From the IMG/VR virus record IMGVR_UViG_3300044976_000003, positions 1-38,394 of that record: DNA of 38,394 nt. One strand, given 5' to 3'. Each line of letters starts with the position of its first letter. Within the stretch, counting starts at the first letter, position 1. A program made the translations under genes and the position numbers. Of the stretch, positions 1-17,455 are shown one piece after another. Origin of the DNA: a virus (Duplodnaviria; Caudoviricetes). The notes under the pieces are model-generated. The model was not told the DNA's origin and made no database searches. It saw only the letters and a program-made list of their open reading frames with translations.

Positions 1-120
1 AATTCTTGCTAGAAGACTTAAGGTGTTGTACCCATACCGAGTGTCAAAGACATACCAGTCATTGAATTCAGTCACAGGATCATAAGGATTGTCAACAGTT
101 GTTAGCATGTGTTTAGCCAT
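1..120 (-). CDS. Conserved phage hypothetical protein (5' part only, runs off the window)
   Basis: Hand-translated: ATG at 120, just after the RNAP stop, gives MAKHMLTTVDNPYDPVTEFNDWYVFDTRYGYNTLSLLARI, open to position 1. Confidence 0.75.
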   Translation of the reverse strand, partial: MAKHMLTTVDNPYDPVTEFNDWYVFDTRYGYNTLSLLARI

Positions 121-122
121 CA

Positions 123-2825
123 CTAATCCTTAATGTTAGTCTTCAATGTAGTAACACTAACACCTAAGGCGTCAGCAACTTCTGCTTGGGTATACCCAGA
201 GGCAAGCATCTGATTAGCACGAGCCTTCTTTGTAGAAGTCATAAGAACTTGTTCTTTAGGTGTAGCTAATTGCTTAACACGTTCTAGATTAGAGTTGTTT
301 AGAATCTGTGTTAGTTGATTGTTACTTAAAGCACCAGCCTGAATGGCTTCCCATTCACGATCCTCTATGTAGATGTCTAACTTAGCGGCCCCTGTTTTAT
401 TACGGGCTTCTGCTAATGATTGTGCAGTAAGCTTCTTAATTTCTTCTTGTGTCATGTTAGGATTAGCTTGCTTCTTTGCGGTTACGGTGGTATTGGAGAT
501 CAACTGGGCTTGTCTTTCCAAAGGGGCATTGCTTTGGGCAAGATTCAATTTAGATTTCAAGGTAGCTGCCTCTTCTTGATACGTAGTCCTAGCTGAATTA
601 TTAACAGGGTTTGGCTTAGTGTTTACCATAGCAAGGCGGGCTTCATTTGCCAGGGCCTTAAGTTTGTTCGAATGGGTAGCATACAGGGTCTCTACAACAG
701 TGCCATCATCAGAGACTAATGCAAATGCATCGGGAGTTTCTGCTAACTTTGTAGACTTACGTTTCTTCGTAATCAACTCACCTTTAGCATTGGTGTATGT
801 TTCTACCCTAGTAGGAGAATACTGTTTCTCTCCAGTACGGGGGTTAATTGGACCTCCGCCTTCAGCTACCCTAGCAGGCTTGTAATCTGGTACCCTAATC
901 TCTGAACCAGCTCGAGAAAGTAACGTTGCTGCACCACCAGCCGTCTTTCCTTCTCCCTTTCCTTGATACTTCTTTCTCAAAGCAGGAATGCCATTATCAA
1001 TAGCTGATTGCTTATAATTCAACTTGTGTTTTTCGGCATCAATTACAACCATCGAATGGCGAACAGCTTGCGCAATTTCATCAAGAGATGCGCCCTTAAT
1101 GGTCATGTCAGTAACAAGATTAGAAATCTTCCCCATCTCCATTTGTGTGCCACTGGGGGTCATTCTTACCATTCCAGGGTAGTCTGGATACTGAGCTTTC
1201 GGGTCAAAGCCCTTCAGTTTTTCAAGAGTGGGGGCTGTTTTTACAAGCTTCCCTGCTGTTTGAGGAATAACAATTACAGTATCGCCATCGAAATCTGCAC
1301 CTGATAGTTTCTCAGCAACTTTGCTATTAATTCCGACAGCATCTTTAGCTCGACCAATTGCTTGCTTTGCAGCGCGATGATTATTGTTCACAACAAGTTC
1401 AGGAATCTCAAAGATACCGCCATGCGGATGTCTGATTAGAACTACCGTCTCGCCATTCCTGTAGTTAGGGGCATAAATTTCAGTTTCCTTCATGTTAGTG
1501 ATAGGTAGAATCACATGATGCGCACTACGTTTCGAAATCGCAGCAGCCTCAAGATGTACGGCGGATGAGTCTACACTATCTGAATACGTTTCCAACAATT
1601 TCTTTCGAACTGTGGGGTTTGTCAAAGCCATGATCTCATCAAATTCTTTACGCTTGTTTTCATATGTGAGATCGAGTTGCGTTTTAATCAATACAGGATG
1701 TTGTTTGGACAACATTTGGGATGAAATAGACTTAGACCATTCTTGCCAATCGCCTTCTTCATTCACAATATTCATTGCTGAAGTAAGTTTATCGTTACCA
1801 TCTTTATCTTTTACAATTATTTGCCGTTTAAGTGAAGCTCCGAAAGGATTCTTTTCATCTATGTTGCCATCGGTGTCCCGCTCCATTTCTTTAAGAACTT
1901 TCATCTTAGGAAATGATTTATCCTTGTTAGTGTTGAACAAGAGATCTACACCATCTGGGAGATCATCCTTGTAAACAGCCATGCCCTTGAGATAGTGCGT
2001 ACCATCAACAGCAATTCTAACTTGGGCATACCTTGACTGACCTAGAGACAAGTCGTCTTTACCAGGCCTGACATAGATAACACCATCTTCTTTAGATCCG
2101 CCATCTTCAGCATAACGAATCCCAACCCGCTTCGAGTCGATAGACATTGGTTTCATCGGAACGAAGTAACTCCGACCTCCATCAGGTGAATATGGGGAGA
2201 TCGATTGAATCTTATTAGGATTCTTAAAGACATCTGAGTATTGGCTGTCTGGACTCCCAAGCACCTTTACCGTGGTGTACTTACCAGGACCGGTTGGCGT
2301 CTTCACATAATGAACCTTGTAGCCTTCAGACTTGCACATTGCAACAGCAGTCTTTAACTTATCGTTGCTAATACCTAGGCCGTTCTCCACGCCTCGCCCG
2401 ATGTCAATATACTCTTTCTCAGCGACCTGGTCCTTCAACATGTTTGCGGTAGTCTTGAGAAGATCATTACGATCTTTCTGACCTGGTTCCAATAGAGCTC
2501 TGACCGACGATTCATTCTTGCCCATCTGGCGACCGATTTCGCTAACGGACATACCTTTGGACTTCAAACGCTCAGCCATAGCAATGTCAGCAGCTTTAGA
2601 TTCATGTTTCGCAATAGACTTCAAAGCTCTTAGATCCGTAGTGGAACTAAGACCCATGCCTTTCGCAATCTCAGGCTCAGACAGGCCTTGCTTCTTCAAC
2701 TTCTCAACTTGGTCAAGAAACGACTTACTTCTTTGTGTGACATCATCCCCTGAGCCCCATGGGTATCTTCCAGAATGCCTAGGGGTTCCATAATGCATCA
2801 GATAGGCTTCTTCTGAAATAATCAC
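123..2825 (-). CDS. Putative single-subunit double-psi-beta-barrel RNA polymerase (YonO/RdRP-like) with N- and C-terminal HTH domains
   Basis: Motifs in the order seen in RdRP/YonO enzymes: EDGVIY, AQVR..LKGM, RHPHG, LSGADFDGD (1281-1295), MGKISN, HSMVVIDAEK. HTH-like segments GLSEPEIAKGMG, GMSVSEIGRQMG and GYTQAEVADALGVS. Confidence 0.8.
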   Translation of the reverse strand: MIISEEAYLMHYGTPRHSGRYPWGSGDDVTQRSKSFLDQVEKLKKQGLSEPEIAKGMGLSSTTDLRALKSIAKHESKAADIAMAERLKSKGMSVSEIGRQMGKNESSVRALLEPGQKDRNDLLKTTANMLKDQVAEKEYIDIGRGVENGLGISNDKLKTAVAMCKSEGYKVHYVKTPTGPGKYTTVKVLGSPDSQYSDVFKNPNKIQSISPYSPDGGRSYFVPMKPMSIDSKRVGIRYAEDGGSKEDGVIYVRPGKDDLSLGQSRYAQVRIAVDGTHYLKGMAVYKDDLPDGVDLLFNTNKDKSFPKMKVLKEMERDTDGNIDEKNPFGASLKRQIIVKDKDGNDKLTSAMNIVNEEGDWQEWSKSISSQMLSKQHPVLIKTQLDLTYENKRKEFDEIMALTNPTVRKKLLETYSDSVDSSAVHLEAAAISKRSAHHVILPITNMKETEIYAPNYRNGETVVLIRHPHGGIFEIPELVVNNNHRAAKQAIGRAKDAVGINSKVAEKLSGADFDGDTVIVIPQTAGKLVKTAPTLEKLKGFDPKAQYPDYPGMVRMTPSGTQMEMGKISNLVTDMTIKGASLDEIAQAVRHSMVVIDAEKHKLNYKQSAIDNGIPALRKKYQGKGEGKTAGGAATLLSRAGSEIRVPDYKPARVAEGGGPINPRTGEKQYSPTRVETYTNAKGELITKKRKSTKLAETPDAFALVSDDGTVVETLYATHSNKLKALANEARLAMVNTKPNPVNNSARTTYQEEAATLKSKLNLAQSNAPLERQAQLISNTTVTAKKQANPNMTQEEIKKLTAQSLAEARNKTGAAKLDIYIEDREWEAIQAGALSNNQLTQILNNSNLERVKQLATPKEQVLMTSTKKARANQMLASGYTQAEVADALGVSVTTLKTNIKD

Positions 2826-3382
2826 AATAACGCCTCCATCTTCATTGCTTTAATACGTCTATCAAATGAAATTATCTTATCCATAATTCGGATTAGGGTT
2901 TCCGGATCTGGAGCAAATATTTGTATCTCATCATTTTGATAAATACGTAGCTCAACCCCGATGTCAAGAGGTTTGGTTCGATACTCCAAACAGAACAACG
3001 CCGCATAGACTTCCAACTGTCTTACTGAAGTTTCATTGATGCCAGTCTTCAAATCATGAATTCGAAGTAACCCTTTGCTGAAAGAAATAGCATCCGCTGT
3101 ACCAAAACAATTCTCAGAATAATATAGGGTCTGCTCTGGTCTCATGCGATAACCAATGGCGTCATTAACATACAAGTTCAAAGTCTTAGGAGACTTAGGT
3201 AACTTGACTCTAAGTCGAATAGCCTCGCAAGCAAATGCATGAAGCTCGGTTCCACGTTGAGCAGCTAGAAATGTCATGTAGACGCGATCTAATTTTTCGT
3301 CGTCGTAATTTGTCCAATGATATTTACTAGCGCTTAGAAACGCGTGCTTTCCTGAGAGGTCGGAATGTGTGTTGAAGATCAC
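2822..3382 (-). CDS. PD-(D/E)XK exonuclease (Cas4/DUF2800-like)
   Basis: HAFLSAS, GTELH, GTADAI, IHDLKTG and QLEVYA motifs. Likely GTG start at 3382 rather than the track start at 3439. Confidence 0.75.
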   Translation of the reverse strand: MIFNTHSDLSGKHAFLSASKYHWTNYDDEKLDRVYMTFLAAQRGTELHAFACEAIRLRVKLPKSPKTLNLYVNDAIGYRMRPEQTLYYSENCFGTADAISFSKGLLRIHDLKTGINETSVRQLEVYAALFCLEYRTKPLDIGVELRIYQNDEIQIFAPDPETLIRIMDKIISFDRRIKAMKMEALL

Positions 3383-3644
3383 GTAGAACGTCCTCCTCAA
3401 TTTCTGGATATATAAAAGAAGCAAACGACATGCGGTCAAGCATGTTTATGTAGTACGCTTGATTCGGTTGGAAACGATGCCTAGCAGATTGTTTGACCTC
3501 AAGCATAGCCCATTTGTTCCGATAAAGAATAAGAAGATCTGGGACTCCTTGAAGATAGGAAGTGTCGTTCTTTAGAATGAAACATCCGTCAAACATTTCC
3601 CTTAGTCTATGGATAAGTTGAGCTTGATAATCTCTCTCTAACAA
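3327..3644 (-). CDS. VRR-NUC domain nuclease (resolvase-like)
   Basis: E..YQ, GVPDLLI, LEVK and QPNQ motifs; GGAGG RBS upstream. Confidence 0.8.
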   Translation of the reverse strand: MLERDYQAQLIHRLREMFDGCFILKNDTSYLQGVPDLLILYRNKWAMLEVKQSARHRFQPNQAYYINMLDRMSFASFIYPEIEEDVLRDLQHTFRPLRKARVSKR

Positions 3645-3676
3645 CTAAACCTCCAAAATAAAGTCCCATCTCCTTT

Positions 3677-3702
3677 CATTATAGCATATGTTGCGAACGC
3701 GT
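3677..3702 (-). promoter_or_regulatory. Phage promoter motif copy (variant ACGC-N15-TATAATG)
   Basis: Plus strand cattata-N15-gcgt, upstream of the VRR-NUC/exonuclease/RNAP genes. Confidence 0.6.
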
Positions 3703-5836: not shown

Positions 5837-5859
5837 ACATCGTCCTTTCTAGTAGGTTC

Positions 5860-5885
5860 CATTATAGCAAAAGATTAGTATGCGA
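5860..5885 (-). promoter_or_regulatory. Phage promoter motif TCGC-N15-TATAATG
   Basis: Plus strand cattata gcaaaagattagtat gcga. Confidence 0.75.
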
Positions 5886-5920
5886 AAACCATAAGCCCGT
5901 GTTAGGGGCTTAGAGGGTTT
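5886..5920 (-). terminator. Hairpin family A abutting a promoter
   Basis: aaaccataagcccgtgttaggggcttagagggttt. Confidence 0.65.
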
Positions 5921-5926
5921 AGTGAG

Positions 5927-6100
5927 TCAGTCGGACTTCTCTAGAATTTTGTTACCAATCTTCACAGTTGCATAGAATATCAAACCGTAAGTTCCTCCAA
6001 TAACCGCAGCCTTCTTTAGTTGGTATTTAGTCTCGTTGGGGAGTGCTATCCGGTATGTATTCGAAAGTGCACTGTTGTTCTTGTAAATTACAAATTCCAT
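5927..6100 (-). CDS. Small membrane protein (cassette gene)
   Basis: Start re-set to MEFVIYK, downstream of the promoter and GAAAGGA RBS; hydrophobic AAVIGGTYGLIFYATV. Confidence 0.7.
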   Translation of the reverse strand: MEFVIYKNNSALSNTYRIALPNETKYQLKKAAVIGGTYGLIFYATVKIGNKILEKSD

Positions 6101-6114
6101 TTCTTTCCTTTCCT

Positions 6115-6140
6115 CATTATACAAGATGATCTTCACGCGA
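6115..6140 (-). promoter_or_regulatory. Phage promoter motif TCGC-N15-TATAATG
   Basis: cattata caagatgatcttcac gcga. Confidence 0.75.
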
Positions 6141-6167
6141 AAGCCCTAGCACATGGCTAGGGTGTTT
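6141..6167 (-). terminator. Hairpin family B (CCCTAGC-CATGT-GCTAGGG)
   Basis: Identical 19-mer at 18574-18592. Confidence 0.6.
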
Positions 6168-6168
6168 G

Positions 6169-6387
6169 TCAATCAGTTAATTCCACAAGACCTTTCTCAT
6201 AGTATTGAATGAAGGTTAGAGTAGGGATGGCAACAGTCTGAAACTCAACTTCTTCAATAAATTGCGCGAGTCCATCTTCGTAGAATGCGATATAATTCGC
6301 CTCTTTCGGGATTTCTTCGAAATTCATCAAAGCCAATAAGTGTCTAGACTGTTGGTCTACCTTAATTATACACTTCACAGCATCCAT
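6169..6387 (-). CDS. Hypothetical protein (cassette gene)
   Basis: 72 aa with AAGGAGG RBS, flanked by promoter and hairpin. Confidence 0.75.
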   Translation of the reverse strand: MDAVKCIIKVDQQSRHLLALMNFEEIPKEANYIAFYEDGLAQFIEEVEFQTVAIPTLTFIQYYEKGLVELTD

Positions 6388-6411
6388 AGATCCTCCTTAG
6401 GGTTAACTTCT

Positions 6412-6437
6412 CATTATACCCAGTGATTTCCATGCGA
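6412..6437 (-). promoter_or_regulatory. Phage promoter motif TCGC-N15-TATAATG
   Basis: cattata cccagtgatttccat gcga. Confidence 0.75.
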
Positions 6438-6463
6438 GAACCTATACCACATGGGTATAGGCC
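6438..6463 (-). terminator. Hairpin family C (CCTATACC-CATGT-GGTATAGG)
   Basis: Identical 21-mer at 6681; variant at 19814. Confidence 0.6.
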
Positions 6464-6470
6464 GCAATCT

Positions 6471-6626
6471 CTACTTGGCGTGGGTGGCTTTGTATGAATA
6501 ACCGACTTGGTAAGATCCATCGTCAGGTGAGTGGTGGAAACAGTATGGCTCATCGTCATAGGCAACGATGTTAATACAATCTTCAAAGTCACAGGGATGC
6601 ATTTCGTCCATGTCGTAACTAGACAT
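6471..6626 (-). CDS. 51-aa acidic Cys/His protein (not in the ORF track)
   Basis: MSSYDMDEMHPCDFEDCINIVAYDDEPYCFHHSPDDGSYQVGYSYKATHAK; AAGGAG RBS; fills the cassette between the promoter at 6652 and the hairpin at 6438. Confidence 0.75.
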   Translation of the reverse strand: MSSYDMDEMHPCDFEDCINIVAYDDEPYCFHHSPDDGSYQVGYSYKATHAK

Positions 6627-6651
6627 AATTTCTCCTTCGTTAGTAGTATTC

Positions 6652-6677
6652 CATTATACGAGATGATAAACACGCGA
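6652..6677 (-). promoter_or_regulatory. Phage promoter motif TCGC-N15-TATAATG
   Basis: cattata cgagatgataaacac gcga. Confidence 0.75.
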
Positions 6678-6702
6678 AAACCTATACCACATGGGTATAG
6701 GC
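6678..6702 (-). terminator. Hairpin family C
   Basis: aaacctataccacatgggtatagg. Confidence 0.6.
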
Positions 6703-6714
6703 CTTAAGGGTTAA

Positions 6715-6918
6715 TCAACGGTAAGTATAGAAATCCACTTCATACAATGTCAGAAGGTCCTTGTAGCAGTTCCTGATTTTGGTGTTCTCTTTCGCCATGG
6801 CGTCATGAACCTTGTACATCTTAATAGCGTACTCAATTCGCGTTCCGGGCGTATCGGGAAGACCAGCATCAAGCAACTCTTTTACAAGAGCTTCTTCCAT
6901 CATCTTAGTGATATCCAT
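6715..6918 (-). CDS. Hypothetical protein (cassette gene)
   Basis: Start re-set to MDITK after the GAAAGGA RBS. Confidence 0.7.
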   Translation of the reverse strand: MDITKMMEEALVKELLDAGLPDTPGTRIEYAIKMYKVHDAMAKENTKIRNCYKDLLTLYEVDFYTYR

Positions 6919-6942
6919 TTCATTCCTTTCTTGGTTTGTCCT

Positions 6943-6968
6943 CATTATACGAAATGATCTTCACGCGA
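6943..6968 (-). promoter_or_regulatory. Phage promoter motif TCGC-N15-TATAATG
   Basis: cattata cgaaatgatcttcac gcga. Confidence 0.75.
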
Positions 6969-6984
6969 AAAAAAATAGACCGCG

Positions 6985-7014
6985 AAAAGGGAGGGGCCGG
7001 TTAAGACCCCTCCC
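6985..7014 (-). terminator. Intrinsic terminator
   Basis: GGGAGGGG..CCCCTCCC stem followed by TTTT on the minus strand, after the 7022 stop. Confidence 0.7.
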
Positions 7015-7021
7015 AGATCAC

Positions 7022-7381
7022 CTAAATAATAGGATACACTTCGCCTGGAATTCCAGCTTTACGAGCCTTCTCGATAAAATCGTTAGTTCCTGTGCTGTCG
7101 CTTCGTGGAAAGGCAATCCAGAATTCAACATCAGAAGCTAACATAGCCGCATTCCGTTGTGGTCCTGCCGAACGCCCGTACTTCTGCCATAGAGCTTCAT
7201 ACCGCTCGACGCTAATGTCGTTCTCATCAGCCCACTCATCAGCAAGAGCATCGACACCAGTAGCACCACCATGGAGAATCGTATCGATTTCGTACTTATC
7301 ATGCAAGAAATCAAATACCGTCCAGATATACCGGATGTCCTTCTCGCTTGTCCTACGAGTCCCTGAAACTGCTACTCTCAT
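7022..7381 (-). CDS. SLOG-superfamily protein (DUF2493/YspA-like)
   Basis: RVAVSGTR, ILHGGATGVD, AGPQRN..ML and IAFP...GT motifs. Confidence 0.8.
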   Translation of the reverse strand: MRVAVSGTRRTSEKDIRYIWTVFDFLHDKYEIDTILHGGATGVDALADEWADENDISVERYEALWQKYGRSAGPQRNAAMLASDVEFWIAFPRSDSTGTNDFIEKARKAGIPGEVYPII

Positions 7382-7722
7382 AGTTTGGTCCTTAGGTACT
7401 TGAGCGTATCCGAGAACCCGTTGAGAATATCTACAATCGAGATCTCAACAGATTCTACAGGATCGAAAGTATTTTCGAACGAAGGAGCAGTATACACCTT
7501 GAACCCACTATCCGAAGAGAGGACCCAATCCCCAACATTAGCGATCGTCTGCTTCGGCGAGAGCGGCCGCTTGACATTCACCTTGATCTTAGGGCCATCG
7601 GTTGTTTGAATGATATTGCCATCGCACCACGTGGCTACATCATACATATTCTTAGCTGTAACCCGAACTGCGTCAACCGTAAACGGCTTTCTTAGATAGA
7701 CCCGTACGTCCAGTTCATTCAT
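7378..7722 (-). CDS. Conserved phage protein (RKP..V.AV...VGDWV...FE.TF type)
   Basis: Motif pattern common in small phage proteins; start/stop overlaps with neighbours. Confidence 0.7.
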   Translation of the reverse strand: MNELDVRVYLRKPFTVDAVRVTAKNMYDVATWCDGNIIQTTDGPKIKVNVKRPLSPKQTIANVGDWVLSSDSGFKVYTAPSFENTFDPVESVEISIVDILNGFSDTLKYLRTKL

Positions 7723-7948
7723 TATATGTCAATCCTCTACTCTTGAGTTGCAAAGCTGCCCGGACAGCAGCATCTTGTGATTCGGCCAATTTCAATACAC
7801 ATCTTGTCTTCTCCGGGCCCTCAGGCAAGACCTCAGATACTAATACTGCGAGAGCATTGAACTGGGCACTAATCTTGAATGGTTCGACTTCAGCCCTGAT
7901 CGGTTTATATCCACGAGGAGCATCATATAGTAGTTCTTCTTCAGCCAT
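7715..7948 (-). CDS. Small helical-hairpin protein, paralog of the C-terminal domain of 8135-8698
   Basis: EELLYDAPRG and LPEGPEKT..VLKLAESQDAAVRAAL; start at MAEEE (7948) or at 7957. Confidence 0.7.
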   Translation of the reverse strand: MAEEELLYDAPRGYKPIRAEVEPFKISAQFNALAVLVSEVLPEGPEKTRCVLKLAESQDAAVRAALQLKSRGLTYNE

Positions 7949-8138
7949 GAGCTTCATCCCACAATCTCACAAGCTCCTTGGCAATGGTGATATCATCAAC
8001 CATCCCGATAAGAAGTCCATCGCCATCCGGGTTTGTTATAGGCGTTAGATACAAAGTCCTTCCGACTTTCCTTCCTTGGCGAAGCGTATACATATTCCAC
8101 CGCGGACGGTTATCAGGCTCTGGGAATAGTGCGGTCAT
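7941..8138 (-). CDS. Hypothetical protein
   Basis: 65 aa, ATGA overlap with the upstream gene; RQGRKVGRTLY..LIGMVD. Confidence 0.7.
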   Translation of the reverse strand: MTALFPEPDNRPRWNMYTLRQGRKVGRTLYLTPITNPDGDGLLIGMVDDITIAKELVRLWDEAHG

Positions 8139-8698
8139 ACCACATCATCCAAAGCTGCTCGAACTGCCGCATCCTTCGACTCAAGAAGTTTACGGAGGGC
8201 TACCGTCTTCTCAGGTCCACGAGGGAGGAGCGTCTCCATTTCGTGAGCCATAGCTGAGAACTTACCGCTAATGGTTCGCAAAGGAGTCGGCAAGTGTCCG
8301 AAAGCGAAATAACGTAGGATCGGGCTTTCTTCTGGGTCAGTCATTATATTCTCCTTCTTAGTTCCTCTTGGCGTATCGTAGAGAAGTTCCTCTTGTTTAG
8401 CGACAACTTTGATCGGATTGTTGAATTCGTCATATAGCCCATAATTTCTACATTCATGATGGTGGGATATATTCGATGTTGCACCACACACGTAGCACGG
8501 ATATTTACTATTCCAATGCTGTTCAGGCAGATCGTCTCTTATAACTGTGATATTGGCCTGGACCTTAGGTAACACAGGAAATGGGCCGCCAACATCTGGA
8601 TACAGACCATAATTAGGACAAGTCGAGATATGGCTCAGATTGCTATCCGCTCCGCAACGAACACAATGAAGACCGTCTAGAGACCAGTGTTCACTCAC
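8135..8698 (-). CDS. Tandem Zn-ribbon protein fused to a helical-hairpin (Acb2/Tad1-like?) domain
   Basis: Two CxxCGAxSNxSHxxxCxNYGLY repeats; C-terminus YFAFGHLP..LPRGPEKTVALRKLLESKDAAVRA; likely GTG start at 8698. Confidence 0.7.
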   Translation of the reverse strand: MSEHWSLDGLHCVRCGADSNLSHISTCPNYGLYPDVGGPFPVLPKVQANITVIRDDLPEQHWNSKYPCYVCGATSNISHHHECRNYGLYDEFNNPIKVVAKQEELLYDTPRGTKKENIMTDPEESPILRYFAFGHLPTPLRTISGKFSAMAHEMETLLPRGPEKTVALRKLLESKDAAVRAALDDVV

Positions 8699-8846
8699 GT
8701 TCACCCCTCTCCCTAAATAGAATTCCAGCATTCTGCATCTCGAAAATAGCCGCTGCTGCTCGAATATCGCTCAGACCAGATTTAACCAAAGCAGCGTGCA
8801 CTTTGAATATGGTGTTGTCACTGTAGTATGTTATGTCCTCAATCAT
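8691..8846 (-). CDS. Conserved hypothetical protein
   Basis: MIEDITYYSDNTIFKVHAAL..EMQNAGILFRER; GGAG RBS. Confidence 0.65.
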   Translation of the reverse strand: MIEDITYYSDNTIFKVHAALVKSGLSDIRAAAAIFEMQNAGILFRERGERE

Positions 8847-9021
8847 GCTTCTCTCCGCTATCCTCAGCCAACCAATTTTCAATTTCGGTAGCGAAAGGGT
8901 CGATTACAATATGAGCCTTACCGGCAAAGTGTGGAATATTTTCAGGATCGATAGCGTCCATCGCCTTTGCAACATCCTCAGGCACTTTAATATCGAGTGT
9001 GAGGATAAGAAGACACTTCAC
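8839..9021 (-). CDS. Hypothetical protein
   Basis: 60 aa, coupled to both neighbours by overlaps. Confidence 0.6.
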   Translation of the reverse strand: MKCLLILTLDIKVPEDVAKAMDAIDPENIPHFAGKAHIVIDPFATEIENWLAEDSGEKHD

Positions 9022-9503
9022 TGAATTCTGCCACTTCTAGACGGAACTTGCTCAAGGTCGGCGTACTTACGATCCAATGCGTCTTCCTCAATCGTCACAA
9101 AGATAGAACGCAGATACGCCTTGATTCCCGTATTACCATCCATCTCCCAATGACTCGGGCTGATTGTCAGATCTACGTTCCGGATATCAACCCAGTCGAG
9201 CATTTCAACGGTATCCTCATCCAAGTTTGTTCGGCCTTGGCCAGTCACAAGAAGAATCCGAGGAGGACGGATCTTGTAACTCACAGTAACGGGCAAATGC
9301 GCTTGTGCTGGGTCTCCCTCATCGCGAGGCTTGAGCCACTTCACGTTCCAACCGTCACGGCTGAGTCGTTCGGCCGTATCGTCGTCAAGAAGAACGTTGA
9401 ATGTTCGAGCCCCTGCTCTGTTTTTCGGAGACTCCTTTCCCGCAAAGTTTCGGAAGATGATCCGGACATCTTCAAGAATTACGTTTCTGTCATTATAGGC
9501 CAT
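9018..9503 (-). CDS. Probable ssDNA-binding protein
   Basis: RIIFRNFAG..RTFNVLL..GWNVK..KAYLRSIFVTIEED pattern with an acidic segment near the C-terminus; near the replication genes. Confidence 0.6.
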   Translation of the reverse strand: MAYNDRNVILEDVRIIFRNFAGKESPKNRAGARTFNVLLDDDTAERLSRDGWNVKWLKPRDEGDPAQAHLPVTVSYKIRPPRILLVTGQGRTNLDEDTVEMLDWVDIRNVDLTISPSHWEMDGNTGIKAYLRSIFVTIEEDALDRKYADLEQVPSRSGRIQ

Positions 9504-9711
9504 TTGATCCCTCAATTCCCAAACCTTGCGTTTGCTCGACTGTCTCTCCTCGCCAATCTCCTCGCATGACTACCGCCGTGTTCCACACCTCGAGGCAGGC
9601 AAGGAGATACCAGGCAAGAACAAAATCCGGGGTACCAGACTTATTCTCTTGCGAATACTTATTAAGAAGAGAAATAAGTTCCTCCTCCAGTGGCTGTCTT
9701 GTACGGGGCAT
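9493..9711 (-). CDS. Small protein with an LLNKYSQEN.SGTPDFVLA motif (possible Acb4-like sponge)
   Basis: 72 aa; the family resemblance is from recall only. Confidence 0.65.
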   Translation of the reverse strand: MPRTRQPLEEELISLLNKYSQENKSGTPDFVLAWYLLACLEVWNTAVVMRGDWRGETVEQTQGLGIEGSNGL

Positions 9712-9882
9712 TTACTTCTCCCTCAGATATTTAATAAGTCCATCGGCCACCCATAAAGCCTGGTCACTAAGAAATACTCCTGCATTCTCAGGATGTTCCC
9801 AACACATAGAACCCGTCCCAATAGCCTCTCGAATTGCCTGTTCTGGACTCGCGTCGTAAGAAGGCTTCCATTCGTTGGACAT
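9712..9882 (-). CDS. Hypothetical protein
   Basis: Start MSNEW after the GGAGG RBS; GTGSMCWE..AGVF motif. Confidence 0.7.
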   Translation of the reverse strand: MSNEWKPSYDASPEQAIREAIGTGSMCWEHPENAGVFLSDQALWVADGLIKYLREK

Positions 9883-9900
9883 TATTTCCCCTCCATATAT

Positions 9901-9937
9901 GAAAACCATAAGCCCCTGGTTGGGGCTTAGAGGGTTT
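9901..9937 (-). terminator. Hairpin family A variant
   Basis: gaaaaccataagcccctggttggggcttagagggttt. Confidence 0.6.
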
Positions 9938-9945
9938 ATGAGTTC

Positions 9946-10077
9946 CTAGCGATTCTTAGCGATGTGAACTAAGCCTTTCAACCACAAGTGTTGCGTGCCA
10001 TAGTATCCGACCATCCCCATTAGAAGAGACGATACAAAAACTATTGGCTTCAACGCTGTGAGTTCATCTTCAGTCAT
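9946..10077 (-). CDS. 43-aa membrane peptide (not in the ORF track)
   Basis: MTEDELTALKPIVFVSSLLMGMVGYYGTQHLWLKGLVHIAKNR; GAAAGGA RBS; between the promoter at 10100 and the hairpin at 9901. Confidence 0.7.
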   Translation of the reverse strand: MTEDELTALKPIVFVSSLLMGMVGYYGTQHLWLKGLVHIAKNR

Positions 10078-10213
10078 TTCGTTCCTTTCGTAGGGTCCTC
10101 ATTATAGGAGATGTATCAGTCGCGAACATAGGATCTGAAGTTCCATGCCATGGGCATGGCTCCGGATATGAGATCTTCCCTGCATCGCAACATTCCACCT
10201 TTTGCGCCTCCAT
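10070..10213 (-). CDS. Possible small Cys/His protein
   Basis: MEAQKVECCDAGKISYPEPCPWHG; weak RBS, and the 3' half overlaps a promoter. Confidence 0.35.
   Translation of the reverse strand: MEAQKVECCDAGKISYPEPCPWHGTSDPMFATDTSPIMRTLRKERND
10100..10125 (-). promoter_or_regulatory. Phage promoter motif TCGC-N15-TATAATG
   Basis: cattata ggagatgtatcagtc gcga. Confidence 0.75.
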
Positions 10214-10220
10214 CTGTTTT

Positions 10221-13200
10221 CTAAGTAACCAGATCCATGAACGACCCGAATTCCTCAATTGTCTTTACCGCCTTTTTCGCCATTTTCTCGAAATATGTCA
10301 TGTCGATCTCAGCGTTCGGATCTTCTTCGAACATATGGGCTTCCATCCAGTAATAGCCCTTAGTTCCTGTGACAGCATAACGCTTGTCCTCGTAAATACG
10401 ATAAAGAACGCCTCCTCCTGAGTCAGGAGTTACCGGTACGAATAACCCGGTCCTTCCTACAAAGCGTAGTCCTTCGACAAGAGACATAGCACGATCATGC
10501 TCGAAGTCCAGATAGATAGCACCCTTTGTGACCGACTTCGCCTCACATAGGTCTTCAAAAGCCACATCTTCGTGAGTGAACAGAGTTTTGAATACGTACG
10601 GGTGTTGGAATTGTGCACCTACAGCCTCCCACTGGCCGTCCTTACGAGCTATGTACACAGCGTCATTTACAAGACAGAACTTCTCATAAACGCCCTCGAA
10701 TTCGAATTCATAACCATATTTATGGCCGAACTCCGTCACAAAATCGATTATTTCAGAATCACCCCCCGGGATTTTTATCGAATCCGTTTTAATATGCACA
10801 ACCTGAGCACCATAGTCCTGTACCGCGTGCTTCAAGTCGATCATGAAGAGGGCCCCTCGCTTCGCCACGATGTTATCCTTATTTCGCGGGTCTCTAAAAG
10901 GATTGTCGAATCGCGCTGAGGTGAGTCCATATACAATATTGATAACGATCTTGAGGGCGTAAGAAAGATCCTTAGAGTCGCTATCAGATCCAAGAAACTT
11001 TCCGAGTTTACCACCAAGAACCTTCCTTGCGGTTTCGTAGTCCTGATTCTTAATTGCCAACCGCGCTTCGAGGAGTTCTTTAAACTTAGGTGTATATCGT
11101 CCGAAAAGATCGAGCTCCACAATGGACGTCGGATGCATACTCGCCACGTCCAGAACCGCGACGTCAGAATAAATCCCAGGTTCGGCGTAAACGTAGCCGC
11201 CTTCTCCTGTAACCTCATTGCGATAGGTACTTTTACCCATGTCATAGATATACCCCTCGAATTCCTTGCTCAAATCGGTATATTTGAAGCTAGCTTGAGG
11301 ATGCCGGTCCGCTCCGAATAGGATCTTTGCTGTATGCTTCTGGGTTGTGTCATTTACCGAGAGCCCGCTGAGTTCAGCCAAGATCTGCCTTGCTACGAAG
11401 TCTTGCTTTCTGGCTTCGAAGACCGTCTCAGTTGCTAGGACATCGTTAACGCAGTAATCAACGACCTTGCCCCAAAGTTTCTCGTCAACCGGCTCATCCC
11501 AAGGCAGATCCATTTCCTGATGCGGCACACCAAGTTCGATTTGGAACTTCTTGAGACCTTGTTTCTTAGAGCTGAAGTCATAGATATCCGCATACGATAG
11601 ATGATATGCCTCGCCGAATAGAGCATTCGGGTTGTTATCGATGATCTTCTTACTAAGAGTATGTAATTGCTCGTTGCTGAATCCCATAAACCGAGCGTAC
11701 AAGATGTGGTTGTCATACCGACGATTGTTGAACCCGACCAATCGCAAGGAAAAGAGTTCCTCGATCTCTTCCGAGGATGGGTTGACCATGCGCACGACGA
11801 TCGGGTCACCCTGGTATTTCCAGCAGACAATGAAGAGGTTCGGATACACCTCGACGTCGAAGAAGACAACACGCTCATCTTTCTCCTCTTCCCATGGCGG
11901 ATTTGTTTCTTTAGACTTGAACTGCATCGACTGGACAATCTTGATGCATTCCATAGCCCTATTCGTGCTGTTATTGGCAAATACTATGATTTTGGATCTT
12001 AGGTCACTGACATCATAAACGAGATCAGAGGAGTATGCGTCATCGAGGATTTTGTGAATGAAATCCACTGAGGGCTTAGTTCCAGGATGAATTTCCTTCC
12101 TAAGATTACGACCAATAAGATCTCGTAACGACTTTTCCGATTTAATAGTGTGATCATTTAGCACCTTCTTCTCCTTAAGTGGGAGACCGGAGTCTATGCT
12201 ATCAATAGGTATGTTATTGCACCTTGTGAGTTTACGACGAAGAGAACTACCTCCGAGGAATACTTTGACTTCAATTCCATTGCTATACCGTCCATCCAGG
12301 CTGTGTACGTCTCCTCCGTACAGATAATGTAGATGCACCCCGGCTCCAGAGCGGCTAAATTCGGCATAAGTGGGAGGCCAGACCGAAGCTGCTTCAAGGT
12401 TTCTTTCAAGCGACTTTTGTCCATCTTCATCCTTAAGATCGAAATCAATCACAATATGGTTCTCTGGTACCTTGACGTAATGCGTTAATGCGGTATCTAA
12501 ATCGGACAGAGTTGTTGTTACATCATCCCACTTCTTATAAGGAGTTCCTTGTGGAGTAGCGTATTGAGCAGGAGCTAGCGCATACTCAGAATCGAATATA
12601 GATTCTTCCTCGTCCATAACCAGCGAGAAGGTCTTGTCTTTTTTCGACTCGGATTTGAATTTGTTAGCTGTGAATCCTACATACACACTTCTCACATCCT
12701 TGCCATCAACGTGCATCCTTGTCTTGAATTCTTCGAAGTAATTTCGTAGTTCATCTCGGAATTTCACACGACTGATAGGATATTTGGTACCTGATTCTTC
12801 GCAATACTCCTTGTACAAGGCGTAAGCTTGCTTCAGAGATGTGTAATTCTGGGACTTGAAGATATCGTAATGCGCTTCGATGAAGTTGAAGAAGTCATCA
12901 GTCATAAGGATCATTTCCAATGGGCGGTAATGGTTGTAATAGTTCTTACCCATCGACCGATATACTTCAAGGCAATGGCACGCAATAGCTCCTAGCTGAA
13001 AATCAATTTGGTTGATTAGCGTGTTGTAATGATTGACCGGGATCATAACCCCGGTTGGCACCACATCGATAAGCCTTCGGATCAGGCCCGACTTCGCATC
13101 AGTGATCTTGACTGGCTGGTTTGTGCCCATGAATAAGAAGGCGTTCATACGAACTCGGTAAGGAGCCTTGAACTTCTCATTCATAGTCATCATCTCATGC

Positions 13201-13943
13201 GATACGATGCTATTCAGTTTTGTGTTGTCCTCGATCTTCGACAAGTCCCCATCATGCTGGATTGCAACAAGGGGATCAGATTTGAAAATCTCCATCGAGA
13301 AGGTGTTGTTGTTTCCGCTCAAGGATTTTGCCTCGAAAGGAACAGTGTAGCCTTGGAAGAGATTCTCCACCACGTTTAGAATAGTTGATTTCCCCGTCCC
13401 GGCAGCTCCGTAAAGGACAAGGAACTTCTGGATTTTTATCGAGTCTTGCGCAATAATCGAGCCGATAGACCACTCGATCTTCGCCCTCTCTTCCACCGAG
13501 TATAGGGTCCCTACTAGTTCGTCCCATGCACTGTAATCTCCTGGCTCTAGAGAATATGGCAGACGTCTGCTGACATAGTCCGAACGCTTTACTTCCGTAT
13601 TCGCAAAGGTCAATTTCAGATCAAGCTGGTGATTGCTGTCACTCAGATTGCTAAGGAATATACGAAAGTTGATCCATTGCCTGGAATTGTAAGAGCTTAG
13701 CGTCTTGACAATGCAAGTTTTTCCTTTATCCTTAAGTTGTTTCGCATGAGCATAAAGATCAGCGTCAACAAGTCGAGGGACGTCGTACTCGTCTGTAGAC
13801 CATAAACCTCGCGCCTCATCCCAGATAGCGTAGAATTGCCTCCCTCGGACCATAAGATCTTTTGAGCGACCAATAATCCAGTTAGGATATATCTCTATTG
13901 ACCCGTCTTTCAGCTCCTTCTCGATGACTTCGTAAAAATCCAT
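10221..13943 (-). CDS. Fused SF3 (D5-like) helicase / AEP prim-pol / 3'-5' exonuclease / family-B DNA polymerase
   Basis: Helicase GAAGTGKST; AEP-like VIDFD and SRSGAGVHLHY; exonuclease FFDVEV, GFNNRRYD, YCVND; PolB DVASMHP, KIVINIVYG, KTDS. Confidence 0.85.
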   Translation of the reverse strand: MDFYEVIEKELKDGSIEIYPNWIIGRSKDLMVRGRQFYAIWDEARGLWSTDEYDVPRLVDADLYAHAKQLKDKGKTCIVKTLSSYNSRQWINFRIFLSNLSDSNHQLDLKLTFANTEVKRSDYVSRRLPYSLEPGDYSAWDELVGTLYSVEERAKIEWSIGSIIAQDSIKIQKFLVLYGAAGTGKSTILNVVENLFQGYTVPFEAKSLSGNNNTFSMEIFKSDPLVAIQHDGDLSKIEDNTKLNSIVSHEMMTMNEKFKAPYRVRMNAFLFMGTNQPVKITDAKSGLIRRLIDVVPTGVMIPVNHYNTLINQIDFQLGAIACHCLEVYRSMGKNYYNHYRPLEMILMTDDFFNFIEAHYDIFKSQNYTSLKQAYALYKEYCEESGTKYPISRVKFRDELRNYFEEFKTRMHVDGKDVRSVYVGFTANKFKSESKKDKTFSLVMDEEESIFDSEYALAPAQYATPQGTPYKKWDDVTTTLSDLDTALTHYVKVPENHIVIDFDLKDEDGQKSLERNLEAASVWPPTYAEFSRSGAGVHLHYLYGGDVHSLDGRYSNGIEVKVFLGGSSLRRKLTRCNNIPIDSIDSGLPLKEKKVLNDHTIKSEKSLRDLIGRNLRKEIHPGTKPSVDFIHKILDDAYSSDLVYDVSDLRSKIIVFANNSTNRAMECIKIVQSMQFKSKETNPPWEEEKDERVVFFDVEVYPNLFIVCWKYQGDPIVVRMVNPSSEEIEELFSLRLVGFNNRRYDNHILYARFMGFSNEQLHTLSKKIIDNNPNALFGEAYHLSYADIYDFSSKKQGLKKFQIELGVPHQEMDLPWDEPVDEKLWGKVVDYCVNDVLATETVFEARKQDFVARQILAELSGLSVNDTTQKHTAKILFGADRHPQASFKYTDLSKEFEGYIYDMGKSTYRNEVTGEGGYVYAEPGIYSDVAVLDVASMHPTSIVELDLFGRYTPKFKELLEARLAIKNQDYETARKVLGGKLGKFLGSDSDSKDLSYALKIVINIVYGLTSARFDNPFRDPRNKDNIVAKRGALFMIDLKHAVQDYGAQVVHIKTDSIKIPGGDSEIIDFVTEFGHKYGYEFEFEGVYEKFCLVNDAVYIARKDGQWEAVGAQFQHPYVFKTLFTHEDVAFEDLCEAKSVTKGAIYLDFEHDRAMSLVEGLRFVGRTGLFVPVTPDSGGGVLYRIYEDKRYAVTGTKGYYWMEAHMFEEDPNAEIDMTYFEKMAKKAVKTIEEFGSFMDLVT

Positions 13944-13951
13944 GCTCCTCC

Positions 13952-14494
13952 TTACAACTCGTTAACGAGATAAGCGTTCATCTGATACCACAGCTCAACT
14001 TTACGCTGGTCCCGCGTTGAGTTAGGCAAGGGGAACAAGCCTCCTATGCCATTCTCCGAATATGTTCTCCAAATAATACGAGAGAGAACCTCGTCAATTC
14101 CTTTTTCTAATACTCTGTTGTAATACTGGTCTGAGGTAGACGCCATACCTATTCCAGCATTCTCTAGAATCTCCCAGAACCACTCGCGAGGCTCACCTTC
14201 GCCCATAAAAGCAAGCCTTCGCGACATAGCTACTAGCATTTCGAGCATCGAGCAACCAAGACTCATCCACTCCGGGTCTGGGTTGTCGTATTGAATATCT
14301 TCTAGAAACTCATGCCGAAGATACTTTCCGTCCTCAGCTCGGTTATCATCGTTAGGAATAAACCAGAGAAATTCCGTTGTGTAGAGTTGCTTTGCCAAAT
14401 GCCAGTGCGTTCGCATGGGGTTTCTAGATTTGATAGCTCCTATCTGGGCGTATAGGAACTTGAAATATAGCTCATCCAGAGGTTCGTTTTTCAT
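13952..14494 (-). CDS. Conserved phage hypothetical protein
   Basis: 180 aa, operon-coupled; NDDNRAEDG..CSMLEML..GGLFPL..ELWYQM. Confidence 0.8.
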   Translation of the reverse strand: MKNEPLDELYFKFLYAQIGAIKSRNPMRTHWHLAKQLYTTEFLWFIPNDDNRAEDGKYLRHEFLEDIQYDNPDPEWMSLGCSMLEMLVAMSRRLAFMGEGEPREWFWEILENAGIGMASTSDQYYNRVLEKGIDEVLSRIIWRTYSENGIGGLFPLPNSTRDQRKVELWYQMNAYLVNEL

Positions 14495-15195
14495 TCCTCT
14501 AGATCAGGACGGAACTTCAGGACCTCCCGCCGATTAGAATGTCGGCGCCTCCTCTTTCGCGAATGCTCAATATAACCGAGCACTTCTTCGACATAGCTGC
14601 CGCCCATTCGTCTGATCTCGTAGTCAGCTTCCAACTCGTGATTTCGAATATATACAATCTCCAAGTCTTTAGAACCATCTCCGAAACGTTGCAGATTGGT
14701 TATCCCAACAACAAGATCGATCTCTTGCACTACCTCTTCGTTTTCGTTTAGAAGAACATCTTCCTCCTCGTAATATGTGTATGTGATCTTGTCGTATTCT
14801 GGGAACTCGTTCTCAAATTCCAATGTGCTGATAACAAATGGAATCTCTTCGTTACGTGATGCGAGTTCTTCCTCTTCGTTCCAATTCAACTCATCTGGCG
14901 TCTCGTCAATCGGCCCTAGTGTCTCAGGCATGATTATACCATTCTCGTCGTAATGCTCAAGGAGATTCTCGTTCATCTCCTTCTCGACCTTGATCTTGGT
15001 TGCTACCCACCGATTGTAATGATTCGCTTTCTCAATCTCTTCTGCGAGATTAGCGTTGTAATGCTTCTCATACTTCTTTGCCACCTGCTTCTTCGTAACA
15101 ATATACGAGAGCATACCTCCAGCAATAAATGAACTAGCAGAGGCAGCAATGACAAACGCGACATCATTATCAATAAGAGCTCTAAATCTTGTCAT
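14491..15195 (-). CDS. Acidic protein with an N-terminal transmembrane helix
   Basis: Hydrophobic N-terminal segment, Glu-rich body and an Arg-rich patch near the C-terminus. Confidence 0.8.
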   Translation of the reverse strand: MTRFRALIDNDVAFVIAASASSFIAGGMLSYIVTKKQVAKKYEKHYNANLAEEIEKANHYNRWVATKIKVEKEMNENLLEHYDENGIIMPETLGPIDETPDELNWNEEEELASRNEEIPFVISTLEFENEFPEYDKITYTYYEEEDVLLNENEEVVQEIDLVVGITNLQRFGDGSKDLEIVYIRNHELEADYEIRRMGGSYVEEVLGYIEHSRKRRRRHSNRREVLKFRPDLEE

Positions 15196-16084
15196 AAATC
15201 ACTCCATCCACATTGAAGTCAAGCCAAATACCGCCCTCATGGCCTGTCATGAAATCTCGAATACGATTGCTATTGCCTAGAAATACTCCGAAATCGACGT
15301 AATTATCACCCGAAGCATCCATCACCCAACCGACAACCGCCCCAGCTCGAGACCTAGCCATCCCGAGCATGTCATAGACCTCGTTCAGGAAAATATGTCC
15401 ACGAGTATGAAGCAAATCATTAGCGTGATTCTGTTGGGCCTTCAAGAATATGGAGTTGTATTGCGAATCCGATGACCACGAGGTGTGGCTACGATCGAAG
15501 AACCGAGCATAGATCGAATATGGCCCTGGATTTGCTCTGAGTTCTGTCGCCTCTTCCGAACCAAGTGCAGTAATCTTAGAGAACGTATGCTCTTTGGAGC
15601 CATAGCGCATCTGCGAATCAGCTTCTTCGCCATACGCGTCAATGACATTCCGTCGATACGCCTTGAACCCTTGGTCGAGAGCAGAATATGCCGCGGTCAG
15701 GGCAAGATTACGCTTAACAAGGATACGATGCGAGCCTGTCAACGCCGCGATTGTCAGAATACCAATACCAACGGCGGGAGCATAAAGCTTCGTCAGGCTG
15801 ACTGCCGTCCTTGTGTAAACGATCAGAACGTCTTTCTTGTAGTCCTGCTCTGTGTATTGCTCGATCTCGAGCGACCTGACAGTTTTTGCCTTGTTGAGAT
15901 CGGCCTGGGCCTCATCCAGCACAGCCTCAACCTTCAGAGTTGCATGGCTAGCGACAACTGCGGTCGCGACAACACCAACAACCCCGGCAGCAAACAGGAT
16001 AGTAGGAGAATGCTTAGACGCATGAAGGAGCGCCCGTCCTGTTCTGGCCGTAACGGCGTTTGGAATATACTTGACTAGTGACAT
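15182..16084 (-). CDS. Membrane protein (DUF6353-like), paralog of 18796-19551
   Basis: SPTIL.AAGVVG, LYAPAV, L.AAYSAL..F..Y, FLNEVYDMLG..GW. Confidence 0.75.
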   Translation of the reverse strand: MSLVKYIPNAVTARTGRALLHASKHSPTILFAAGVVGVVATAVVASHATLKVEAVLDEAQADLNKAKTVRSLEIEQYTEQDYKKDVLIVYTRTAVSLTKLYAPAVGIGILTIAALTGSHRILVKRNLALTAAYSALDQGFKAYRRNVIDAYGEEADSQMRYGSKEHTFSKITALGSEEATELRANPGPYSIYARFFDRSHTSWSSDSQYNSIFLKAQQNHANDLLHTRGHIFLNEVYDMLGMARSRAGAVVGWVMDASGDNYVDFGVFLGNSNRIRDFMTGHEGGIWLDFNVDGVIYDKI

Positions 16085-16112
16085 TTATGGTCCAATCGTA
16101 CGTAGTTTTAGA

Positions 16113-16143
16113 GAAAGAAAGAGCCCTTGTTAGGGGCTCTCTC
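16113..16143 (-). terminator. Hairpin with a TAACA loop and pyrimidine tail
   Basis: AGAGCCCCTAACAAGGGCTCTTTCTTTC on the minus strand. Confidence 0.65.
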
Positions 16144-16154
16144 AAGTAGTAGGG

Positions 16155-16301
16155 TCAGTCTTCATCCATGTAGTTCACGAGCCATGGGGCAACATACTTT
16201 CTACCGATCTTCATCCCGAGAACGATCGCTCCAATATAGAACGCTCCTCCCACGATTGAGCCAGCAGTAAAGAAGTATTCGTCACGTCTTGTGATTTTCA
16301 T
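16155..16301 (-). CDS. 48-aa membrane peptide (cassette gene)
   Basis: Start re-set to MKITRR after the promoter and AAAGGA RBS; one transmembrane segment. Confidence 0.7.
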   Translation of the reverse strand: MKITRRDEYFFTAGSIVGGAFYIGAIVLGMKIGRKYVAPWLVNYMDED

Positions 16302-16318
16302 GAAATTTCCTTTCTCCT

Positions 16319-16344
16319 CATTATAGGCCGTGTAGAATATGCGA
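16319..16344 (-). promoter_or_regulatory. Phage promoter motif TCGC-N15-TATAATG
   Basis: cattata ggccgtgtagaatat gcga. Confidence 0.75.
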
Positions 16345-16345
16345 C

Positions 16346-16987: not shown

Positions 16988-17004
16988 ATTTTATCCTTCG
17001 AAAG

Positions 17005-17039
17005 AAAACCACAAGGATCTGTTAAGATCCCTGTGGGGC
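17005..17039 (-). terminator. Hairpin family D (CCACAGGGATC-TTAACA-GATCCTTGTGGTTTT)
   Basis: Near-identical copy at 18248. Confidence 0.65.
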
Positions 17040-17044
17040 TGAGG

Positions 17045-17302
17045 TTAATTTGAGTCGGTCGTATCTGGCTTGGCGTTCTTGTTCCAACTATTGACGAAGC
17101 TATCAATTGCAGAATCAGTGTAATTACCGGCCGCCTCGCTTGCCATCATTCCAGCAGCGATACTTCCACTAGTCACAAACAGGTTATCGATTTGTGATCG
17201 TGGAGCTACGTTACGGGAAACAATTTCACGAGTGATCCGGTAAACACCAATTCCAACAACGAACTTCGTTATAGTCTTGGCGAGTTTTACCTTGTCGTCC
17301 AT
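17045..17302 (-). CDS. Small protein with amphipathic/hydrophobic helices (cassette gene)
   Basis: Start re-set to MDDKVK after the GAAAGGA RBS. Confidence 0.7.
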   Translation of the reverse strand: MDDKVKLAKTITKFVVGIGVYRITREIVSRNVAPRSQIDNLFVTSGSIAAGMMASEAAGNYTDSAIDSFVNSWNKNAKPDTTDSN

Positions 17303-17325
17303 TTCGTTCCTTTCAAGTGGGTCCT

Positions 17326-17351
17326 CATTATATGAGATGTTTTTCTTGCGA
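17326..17351 (-). promoter_or_regulatory. Phage promoter motif TCGC-N15-TATAATG
   Basis: cattata tgagatgtttttctt gcga. Confidence 0.75.
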
Positions 17352-17450: not shown

Positions 17451-17455
17451 ATATA

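Follow-up and report, generated by a model that had tools for sequence, protein, structure and literature searches.

The polymerase gene and its catalytic residues

The window analysed here is the entire linear virus record IMGVR_UViG_3300044976_000003 (Caudoviricetes; 38,394 nucleotides (nt)), for which CheckV estimates a completeness of 64%. On its minus strand, at 123..2825, a gene with a GTG start codes for a protein of 900 amino acids (aa) that belongs to the PHROG 4291, or phage 1706 orf75, family, contains three helix-turn-helix (HTH)-type modules and is almost certainly a two-barrel polymerase. An earlier sequence-only reading had placed a compact RNA polymerase (RNAP) in an open reading frame (ORF) at this position but had given no strand; the 900-aa ORF and all the motifs named in it lie on the minus strand, and the plus strand of 123..2825 is dense in stops.

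From its N terminus, the protein contains EDGVIY (aa 246-251; nt 2073-2090), AQVRIAVDGTHYLKGM (aa 267-282; nt 1980-2027), RHPHG (aa 465-469; nt 1419-1433), the metal-binding loop DFDGD (aa 511-515; 1281..1295, minus strand, or 1281-1298 with the leading A included), MGKISN (aa 564-569) and HSMVVIDAEK (aa 590-599). These are the motifs and the order that the sequence-only reading had listed and, judged by eye, the order is the same as in YonO of phage SPbeta. The available text of Ruprich-Robert & Thuriaux 2010 (PMC2919709) lists eight residues as common to all two-barrel polymerases; by motif order and spacing, we assigned D247, R270, K280, R465 and P467 of the window protein to D709, R738, K743, R962 and P964 of QDE-1.

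We determined the conservation of these residues in the best 150 of 2346 representatives, which were picked by phmmer score and not by motif. R270, K280, R465, P467 and the triad D511, D513 and D515 were present in 150/150, D247 in 147/150 (the others being two Glu and one fragment), and all eight residues together in 147/150; moreover, a hand-picked set of relatives kept the residues in 52/52 cases. By contrast, only 7 of the 53 Asp residues in the protein reach 97% conservation. Thus, the motif match exceeds chance, and the three Asp residues, whose variation among homologs would have spoken against a polymerase, do not vary.

Two of the HTH modules precede the catalytic core and one follows it. 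HTH 1 (about aa 36-70; 2616..2720, minus strand) is matched by phrog_3855 at aa 32-63 and has predicted helices, and HTH 2 (about aa 83-113; 2487..2579, minus strand) is matched by Pfam HTH_38 at aa 85-107; each is found in 149/150 representatives. The C-terminal, sigma4-like HTH 3 (aa 866-899; 129..230, minus strand), matched by Sigma70_r4_2 at aa 876-898 and HTH_23 at aa 866-895, is found in 147/150. In Pfam the polymerase matches HTH families only, none of whose single stretches is significant alone; the RNA-dependent RNA polymerase (RdRP) family PF05183 is not among the 13 families at E<=0.01, and a sequence search of the PDB gave nothing significant (best E 0.077). Taken alone, the Pfam and PDB searches would fit a plain HTH DNA-binding protein in which DxDGD is dead or arose by chance; the residue conservation and the structural matches of the predicted core argue against this explanation, and we give it next to no probability.

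Predicted fold and family

The full-length model had a mean predicted local distance difference test (pLDDT) score of 79 and a predicted template modelling (pTM) score of 0.64, with pLDDT <50 for aa 1-28. In Foldseek, QDE-1 was its best match (E 6e-8, template modelling (TM) score about 0.3), and all matches listed at E<=0.001 were two-barrel polymerases; in a viral structure library, a P23-45 protein and proteins with the name RNA-dependent RNA polymerase were among the best matches. The catalytic core as delimited from the predicted fold (aa 226-625; 951..2150, minus strand), folded with 75 sequences, reached pLDDT 93.7 and pTM 0.88. In this model, a first barrel with D247, R270 and K280 is followed by a second barrel with R465, P467 and D511/D513/D515 and then by a helical region. 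QDE-1 was again the best Foldseek match of the core (E 3.6e-11, TM 0.52), and P32 gp64 and P74 gp62 had TM 0.50-0.51.

VIA-align, applied as a second pass over Foldseek's top 1000, aligned the core with QDE-1 681-1147 at Z 20.1 over 336 residues (root mean square deviation 4.7), and this alignment spans both conserved halves of QDE-1, 691-747 and 951-1014. RDR2 also had Z 20.1 and P32 gp64 and P74 gp62 had Z 17.6, while the next matches, cellular-type largest subunits, dropped to Z 11.2. A structure lacking two barrels around DFDGD would have contradicted the sequence-only reading; the predicted core instead appears to have both. Of the proteins suggested there for comparison, QDE-1 was the best match; YonO and crAss-like phi14:2 gp66 were not among the matches listed, an absence that speaks against neither. 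Residue conservation and predicted fold thus both point to a two-barrel polymerase that carries HTH modules.

Very probably, the protein is a DNA-dependent RNAP. The best fold matches, QDE-1 and plant RDR2 (Z about 20 over both barrels), are eukaryotic RNA-dependent silencing enzymes, and this weighs against a DNA-dependent enzyme. An RdRP is also what the PHROG and some RefSeq labels name, and the preprint text of Koert et al. reports an HHpred match of the family to an RdRP family (P=95.68%; bioRxiv 10.1101/842583). However, the similarity to QDE-1 and RDR2 is limited to the core, with 11-16% identity, and the protein has three HTH modules, is encoded by a double-stranded DNA phage and is accompanied by a DNA motif that tracks its gene. 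Moreover, YonO, which shares the motif set, has a strong preference for DNA templates (PMC5467207), and the P23-45 enzymes transcribe phage genes (bioRxiv 10.1101/2022.12.01.518664). We therefore regard an RdRP as very unlikely.

PHROG 4291, which is labelled RNA-dependent RNA polymerase, covers aa 3-899 of the window protein (E=0, 1287 bits), some RefSeq relatives have the same name, and most GenBank relatives among the matches listed are named 'helix-turn-helix DNA-binding domain protein'. Thus, the expectation that such a gene could be annotated as a simple DNA-binding protein was correct; calling the polymerase cryptic, however, overstated the case, given the PHROG match, the RefSeq names and the predictions in print. 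In the accessible sections of these papers, Ruprich-Robert & Thuriaux 2010 place the phage 1706 family among YonO-like proteins and predict a polymerase (PMC2919709), and Koert et al. (2021) predict a polymerase with HTHs at both ends and DxDGD (bioRxiv 10.1101/842583). The window protein is a new member of this previously predicted family. In the literature covered, which leaves aside subscription journals, we found neither a bench test of the family nor a proposed promoter or a portal fusion; the available portions of PMC5759034, PMC5883640, PMC5513430, PMC13313380 and PMC7302621 contain nothing on the activity of the polymerase.

The family is large. By tblastn, 250/50,697 phage records matched, 249 of them over >=80% of the query, and these were mostly Arthrobacter, Gordonia, Streptomyces and Lactococcus phages. 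In the protein database, 8000/8000 scored candidates passed, so that the relatives form at least 8000 clusters at 90% identity; with 50% clustering, the representatives that pass E 0.001 are the 2346 mentioned above. Among GTDB genomes, 309/525 candidate stretches encode a relative, those among the 80 listed being mostly in Bacillota assemblies. PHROG 4291, 1706 orf75, the 'putative RNA polymerase' of FP_oengus and the 'HTH domain-containing protein' of an actinophage supercluster (AM, AU, AW, BI, CC, DJ, EL) are full-length homologs with 39-57% identity and have the same terminal HTHs and the same neighbours. Among cultured phages, Streptomyces phage RosaAsantewaa encodes the nearest relative of the window protein (57% identity); the nearest metagenomic protein is 76% identical. 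In a FastTree phylogeny of 76 loci, it clusters with the Streptomyces phages Scap1 and RosaAsantewaa and with soil-type contigs; because the tree groups it with Streptomyces phages, an actinobacterial host is likely. Two relatives, P0128 and P0138, have about 170 added N-terminal residues, which in P0138 match the 2'-5' RNA ligase superfamily (PF13563).

YonO and the window protein are alike in being phage-encoded single chains of about 100 kDa (Forrest et al. 2017). Because BLAST (best E 0.25) and HHalign (probability 0.8%, with a one-sequence template) detected no similarity between them, the family is, as far as sequence comparison can tell, a sister of YonO rather than its ortholog. Other known single-chain two-barrel phage RNAPs are gp64 and gp96 of Thermus phage P23-45 and gp62 of P74-26 (Z 17.6).

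Gene neighbourhood and a promoter-like motif

All long genes of the window are on the minus strand, including those for the portal, a protease-capsid fusion, the tail and many small proteins as well as those for a primase-polymerase, a helicase, an HNH protein, two nucleases and the polymerase, which closes the replication arm of the genome. The stop of an exonuclease gene (phrog_3953 by PHROG match; 2822..3439, minus strand) overlaps the polymerase start, and upstream of it lies an endonuclease gene (phrog_93 by PHROG match; VRR-Nuc in annotated relatives; 3327..3644, minus strand), with which the probable operon begins. The exonuclease gene is found <=1.2 kb upstream of the polymerase gene in 109/110 loci, and the endonuclease gene accompanies it in 105/110. 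Downstream, the 5' part of a small acidic gene (1..126, minus strand; PHROG 4303 type in relatives) overlaps the polymerase stop and is cut by the contig end. Thus, the window has the order helicase-HNH-nuclease-exonuclease-polymerase-small gene of the 1706 orf75 family. A PHROG 4303-type gene is directly behind the polymerase gene in 69/75 loci, and its product is possibly an accessory factor of the polymerase; a sequence search of the PDB gave no match for this small protein, and in a complex prediction the polymerase of relative L113 and its downstream small protein scored 0.08 (mark 0.32).

A repeat finder detected a dispersed repeat family in the window, with the fixed-spacing consensus CGCR-N7-CA-N5-YWTWATGR. 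In the form CGCR-N14-TATAATGR, it has 16 exact copies, all on the minus, i.e. the coding, strand, versus 0.03 in shuffles. One copy (3676..3701, minus strand) lies ahead of the nuclease-exonuclease-polymerase operon, and 15 further copies (5859..21313, minus strand; at 5859, 6114, 6411, 6651, 6942, 10099, 16318, 17325, 18539, 18751, 19640, 19779, 20566, 20839 and 21288) lie in intergenic gaps of the non-structural arm, many of them behind a hairpin. A weight matrix found 19 sites from 3683 to 21735 and none deeper in the structural arm; 16/19 are 14-32 nt ahead of a start led by a ribosome-binding site (RBS). A scan of 1-4500 for sigma70 promoters gave 9 sites versus 10.4 expected.

The set of loci used for comparison contained the polymerase ORF in 189/190 cases, and 118 loci, the window included, were left below 80% identity. 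In these 118 loci, CGCR-N7-CA-N9-ATGR occurred 143 times in sense and 9 times in antisense, and 24 other spacings gave 2-14 occurrences each. With a second matrix, which leaves '-12' to '-9' unscored, 79/119 loci have a site, and the 119 loci together gave 202 sites in sense and 3 in antisense. The 1.6 kb 5' of the polymerase gene contain a site in 60/107 loci, versus 0 in antisense. The promoter numbering is by analogy, the start site of the motif being hypothetical, and the scored positions were seeded by the pattern, so that their conservation is partly circular, while the unscored positions are free of circularity. Five host genomes (20.4 Mb) with 6 polymerase genes gave 39 matches: 36 of them precede one of these genes on its strand, at a distance of no more than about 31 kb, and 3 are elsewhere; the reversed pattern gave 4. 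One of these genomes has two polymerase genes on different contigs, C5 and C10, each with its own motif cluster. The complete phages 1706, Pepy6, Nightmare and oengus had 7, 15, 7 and 11 sense matches, respectively, and no antisense matches; the complete SPbeta genome had 0 matches.

Folding of the 40 nt 5' of the motif is stronger than that of shuffles (mean -7.9 versus -4.5 kcal/mol; n=202), which suggests that hairpin and motif form terminator-promoter cassettes. In the window, a repeated hairpin cassette is found at 5551-5609, 5860-5918, 9877-9935 and 20093-20625, often directly before a motif copy, and a loop like the CCYAACAMGG of this cassette is present in 12/119 loci.

We consider it probable that the polymerase itself reads this motif. 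Several observations weigh against that reading. Of 119 loci, 40 have no site, and 47/107 have none <=1.6 kb upstream; Lactococcus phage CHPC971 had zero sites until the pattern was relaxed, the Lactococcus phages having the variant CAC...TATAGTA. Moreover, the same co-occurrence with the motif would be expected of any conserved phage regulator in this group. The '-9' base clusters on the polymerase tree (10 changes versus about 25.5 when shuffled); we rejected this as a sign of promoter-polymerase co-evolution, given that kinship explains the clustering and that the best co-varying residues are scattered.

One candidate reader other than the polymerase is the host sigmaA. Sigma70-type factors depend above all on A at -11, but the 202 sites have A in only 50% and T in 42% at '-11', which the matrix left unscored; the commonest box is TTTTAT, and 96/202 sites fit TAnnnT. 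Taken over the family, these frequencies argue against reading by host sigmaA. In the window itself the picture is less favourable to the polymerase: '-11' is A in 17/19 sites, most of which read TATAAT, a perfect sigma70 -10 box, and A is the majority '-11' base in 47/79 loci.

These sites leave room for an alternative that we regard as unlikely, although of real weight, in which the protein, a DNA-dependent RNAP synthesized in the infected cell, would serve the late structural operon, much as YonO does, while host sigmaA reads the motif together with a phage activator on CGCR in the style of T4 MotA. Not only the window but also actinophage sites mostly have TATAAT, the polymerase gene closes the replication arm, and no motif copies are present in the structural arm, so that another promoter must serve it; in addition, the YonO study, in the part available, reports that YonO transcribes the SPbeta late genes (PMC5467207). 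Against this alternative, 106/202 sites do not fit TAnnnT, the sites of oengus use CTTTAT, the motif spacing is fixed, and the 'structural protein' label and the N-terminal tag described below point to the virion.

The linkage to the exonuclease and endonuclease genes would also fit a role in replication, with RNA primers or origin-activating transcripts, not mRNA, as the product. An AT-rich gap between the helicase and HNH genes (4240-4410), with a long inverted repeat (about 4273-4321) about 1.5 kb upstream of the polymerase gene, is possibly a replication origin and would agree with this role. However, the phage has its own primase-polymerase, and the motif copies mostly stand at the noted distance ahead of RBS-led genes; we consider such a role improbable. 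In 24/91 loci, but not in the window, a different repeat, AARGTGGSCA, lies 0.6-2.6 kb 5' of the polymerase gene.

Finally, the polymerase could be real and the repeats unrelated to it, serving as recombination boundaries as proposed for the 32-bp intergenic repeat of cluster AU phages; in the available part of the Giantsbane preprint, gene shuffling between such repeats is described (bioRxiv 10.1101/2020.01.10.891226). From 8 matches in the corresponding region of Nightmare, we infer that the AU repeat and the motif are probably the same element. However, the copies have only spaced short boxes in common, with polarity on one strand and a set distance to ribosome sites, and recombination could be a side effect of the motif copies. 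Accordingly, we hold pure recombination boundaries to be very improbable, and reading of the motif by the polymerase remains our preferred interpretation.

Elsewhere on the minus strand, 10221-13943 encodes a 1240-aa fusion with matches to primase/helicase and DNA polymerase (phrog_4210). Two DUF6353 paralogs are encoded at 15182-16084 and 18796-19653; at the start of the second are two motif copies, separated by 139 nt. The major tail protein (phrog_2645) has three paralogous genes, at 28196-29017, 32073-32870 and 33450-34103, and an M23 peptidase gene lies within the tail module at 29027-29773.

Probable virion packaging and a proposed mechanism

1706 orf75, which is 39% identical to the window protein over its full length (994 columns), has the GenBank product 'structural protein'; this is a label only, and most of its neighbours are labelled 'unknown'. 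The window protein starts with an acidic phi-x-H-x-G ... SGRYPWG tag (aa 5-26; 2748..2813, minus strand) in a region of low pLDDT. A phi-x-H-x-G precedes SGRY in 140/150 representatives, and the run ahead of the tag has 33% Asp plus Glu versus 14% overall (104 fitting a stricter pattern). The protease-capsid fusion of the window (34738..36456, minus strand) has a spacer with repeated phi-x-H (5/5 His in this copy). In 49 such fusions, which were not dereplicated, 205/232 spacer His are in phi-x-H versus 65/254 in the capsid part, and the capsid junction, as placed here, has phi-x-H in 49/49. Because phi-x-H is enriched in the capsid spacers and present at the junction, we read the polymerase tag as a likely head-loading or prohead-protease signal. 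A DUF7211 protein (37767..38264, minus strand) begins with a similar acidic L-x-H-F-G tag, and a tag of this kind also opens 1706 orf7, which is labelled structural.

A search for fusions gave 5 matches among 7984 longer candidates. P0163, P0172 and P0271 (1789-1809 aa) have an intact polymerase core at their end with all eight residues kept, align only to about aa 860, are without the SGRY tag or the last HTH and have a common N-terminal module around GFEGGGRFR; P0163 starts with a portal domain, behind which the polymerase is fused. Each of the three is a lone metagenomic sequence. P0272 and P0273, which combine a partial polymerase with tape-measure or DNA-polymerase pieces, resemble chimeras of assembly and were excluded.

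Together, the label, the tag and the portal fusion make it probable that the polymerase is borne by the virion. Weighing against a virion-borne enzyme, 1706 orf71 is also labelled structural without a visible tag, DUF7211 proteins score weakly against a tag profile (E 1.7-1.9 among 2524 ORFs), only one sequence, from a metagenome, has the portal fusion, and prophages that carry the polymerase gene, whose own operon stands behind the motif, must start without a virion copy.

A model in which a virion-loaded DNA-dependent RNAP transcribes early and replication genes from the fixed-spacing motif is, as a whole, slightly better than an even proposition. In this model, the N-terminal acidic phi-x-His tag would route the polymerase into the prohead, and the capsid-fused protease would clip it there. 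After injection, the polymerase would contact two boxes separated by one turn of the helix, CGCR at about -30 and CA at about -19, its fused HTH modules reading the promoter-like motif, and would open the W-rich box ending in ATG. Short hairpin-bounded transcripts of small early genes, along with those of the replication genes, would result, and transcription of its own operon would give a positive feedback loop. The early timing of motif-driven transcription is likewise part of this proposal.

Parts of this model have counterparts in known systems. The available text on P23-45 describes gp96 as a virion RNAP and a promoter motif that tracks its gene across relatives (bioRxiv 10.1101/2022.12.01.518664), which is the same logic as that applied here to polymerase and motif; gp96, however, is delivered as a tape-measure fusion, whereas the window polymerase would go via the head by its tag. 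In the accessible part of its description, phi14:2 gp66 is a virion-packaged polymerase with DFDxD and a large protein (bioRxiv 10.1101/2020.03.07.982082). YonO, by contrast, is a late-gene RNAP shown as such at the bench, while virion delivery of the window protein is part of a model. The sequence-only reading is thus supported as to the two-barrel polymerase, although neither the promoter-like motif nor the indications of packaging had been noticed in it.

Within its group, this polymerase gene is ordinary, and many annotated phage records name the family only as an HTH protein; the candidate promoter and packaging tag make a 'putative polymerase' testable in cultured laboratory phages. More tentatively, and at somewhat less than even probability, a widespread group of Actinomycetota and Bacillota phages may have a self-sufficient, sigma-free two-barrel RNAP of 100 kDa, whose fused HTHs read a three-part promoter and which is loaded into the head via a His-containing protease tag in common with the capsid spacer or, rarely, delivered as a fusion to a portal or head protein. 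The YonO study, in the portion available, left open whether a single-chain two-barrel enzyme finds promoters alone (PMC5467207). If the proposal is true, it would answer this question and could supply an orthogonal transcription system for Gram-positive hosts, and the polymerase would be a minimal, promoter-specific relative of the cellular RNA polymerases.

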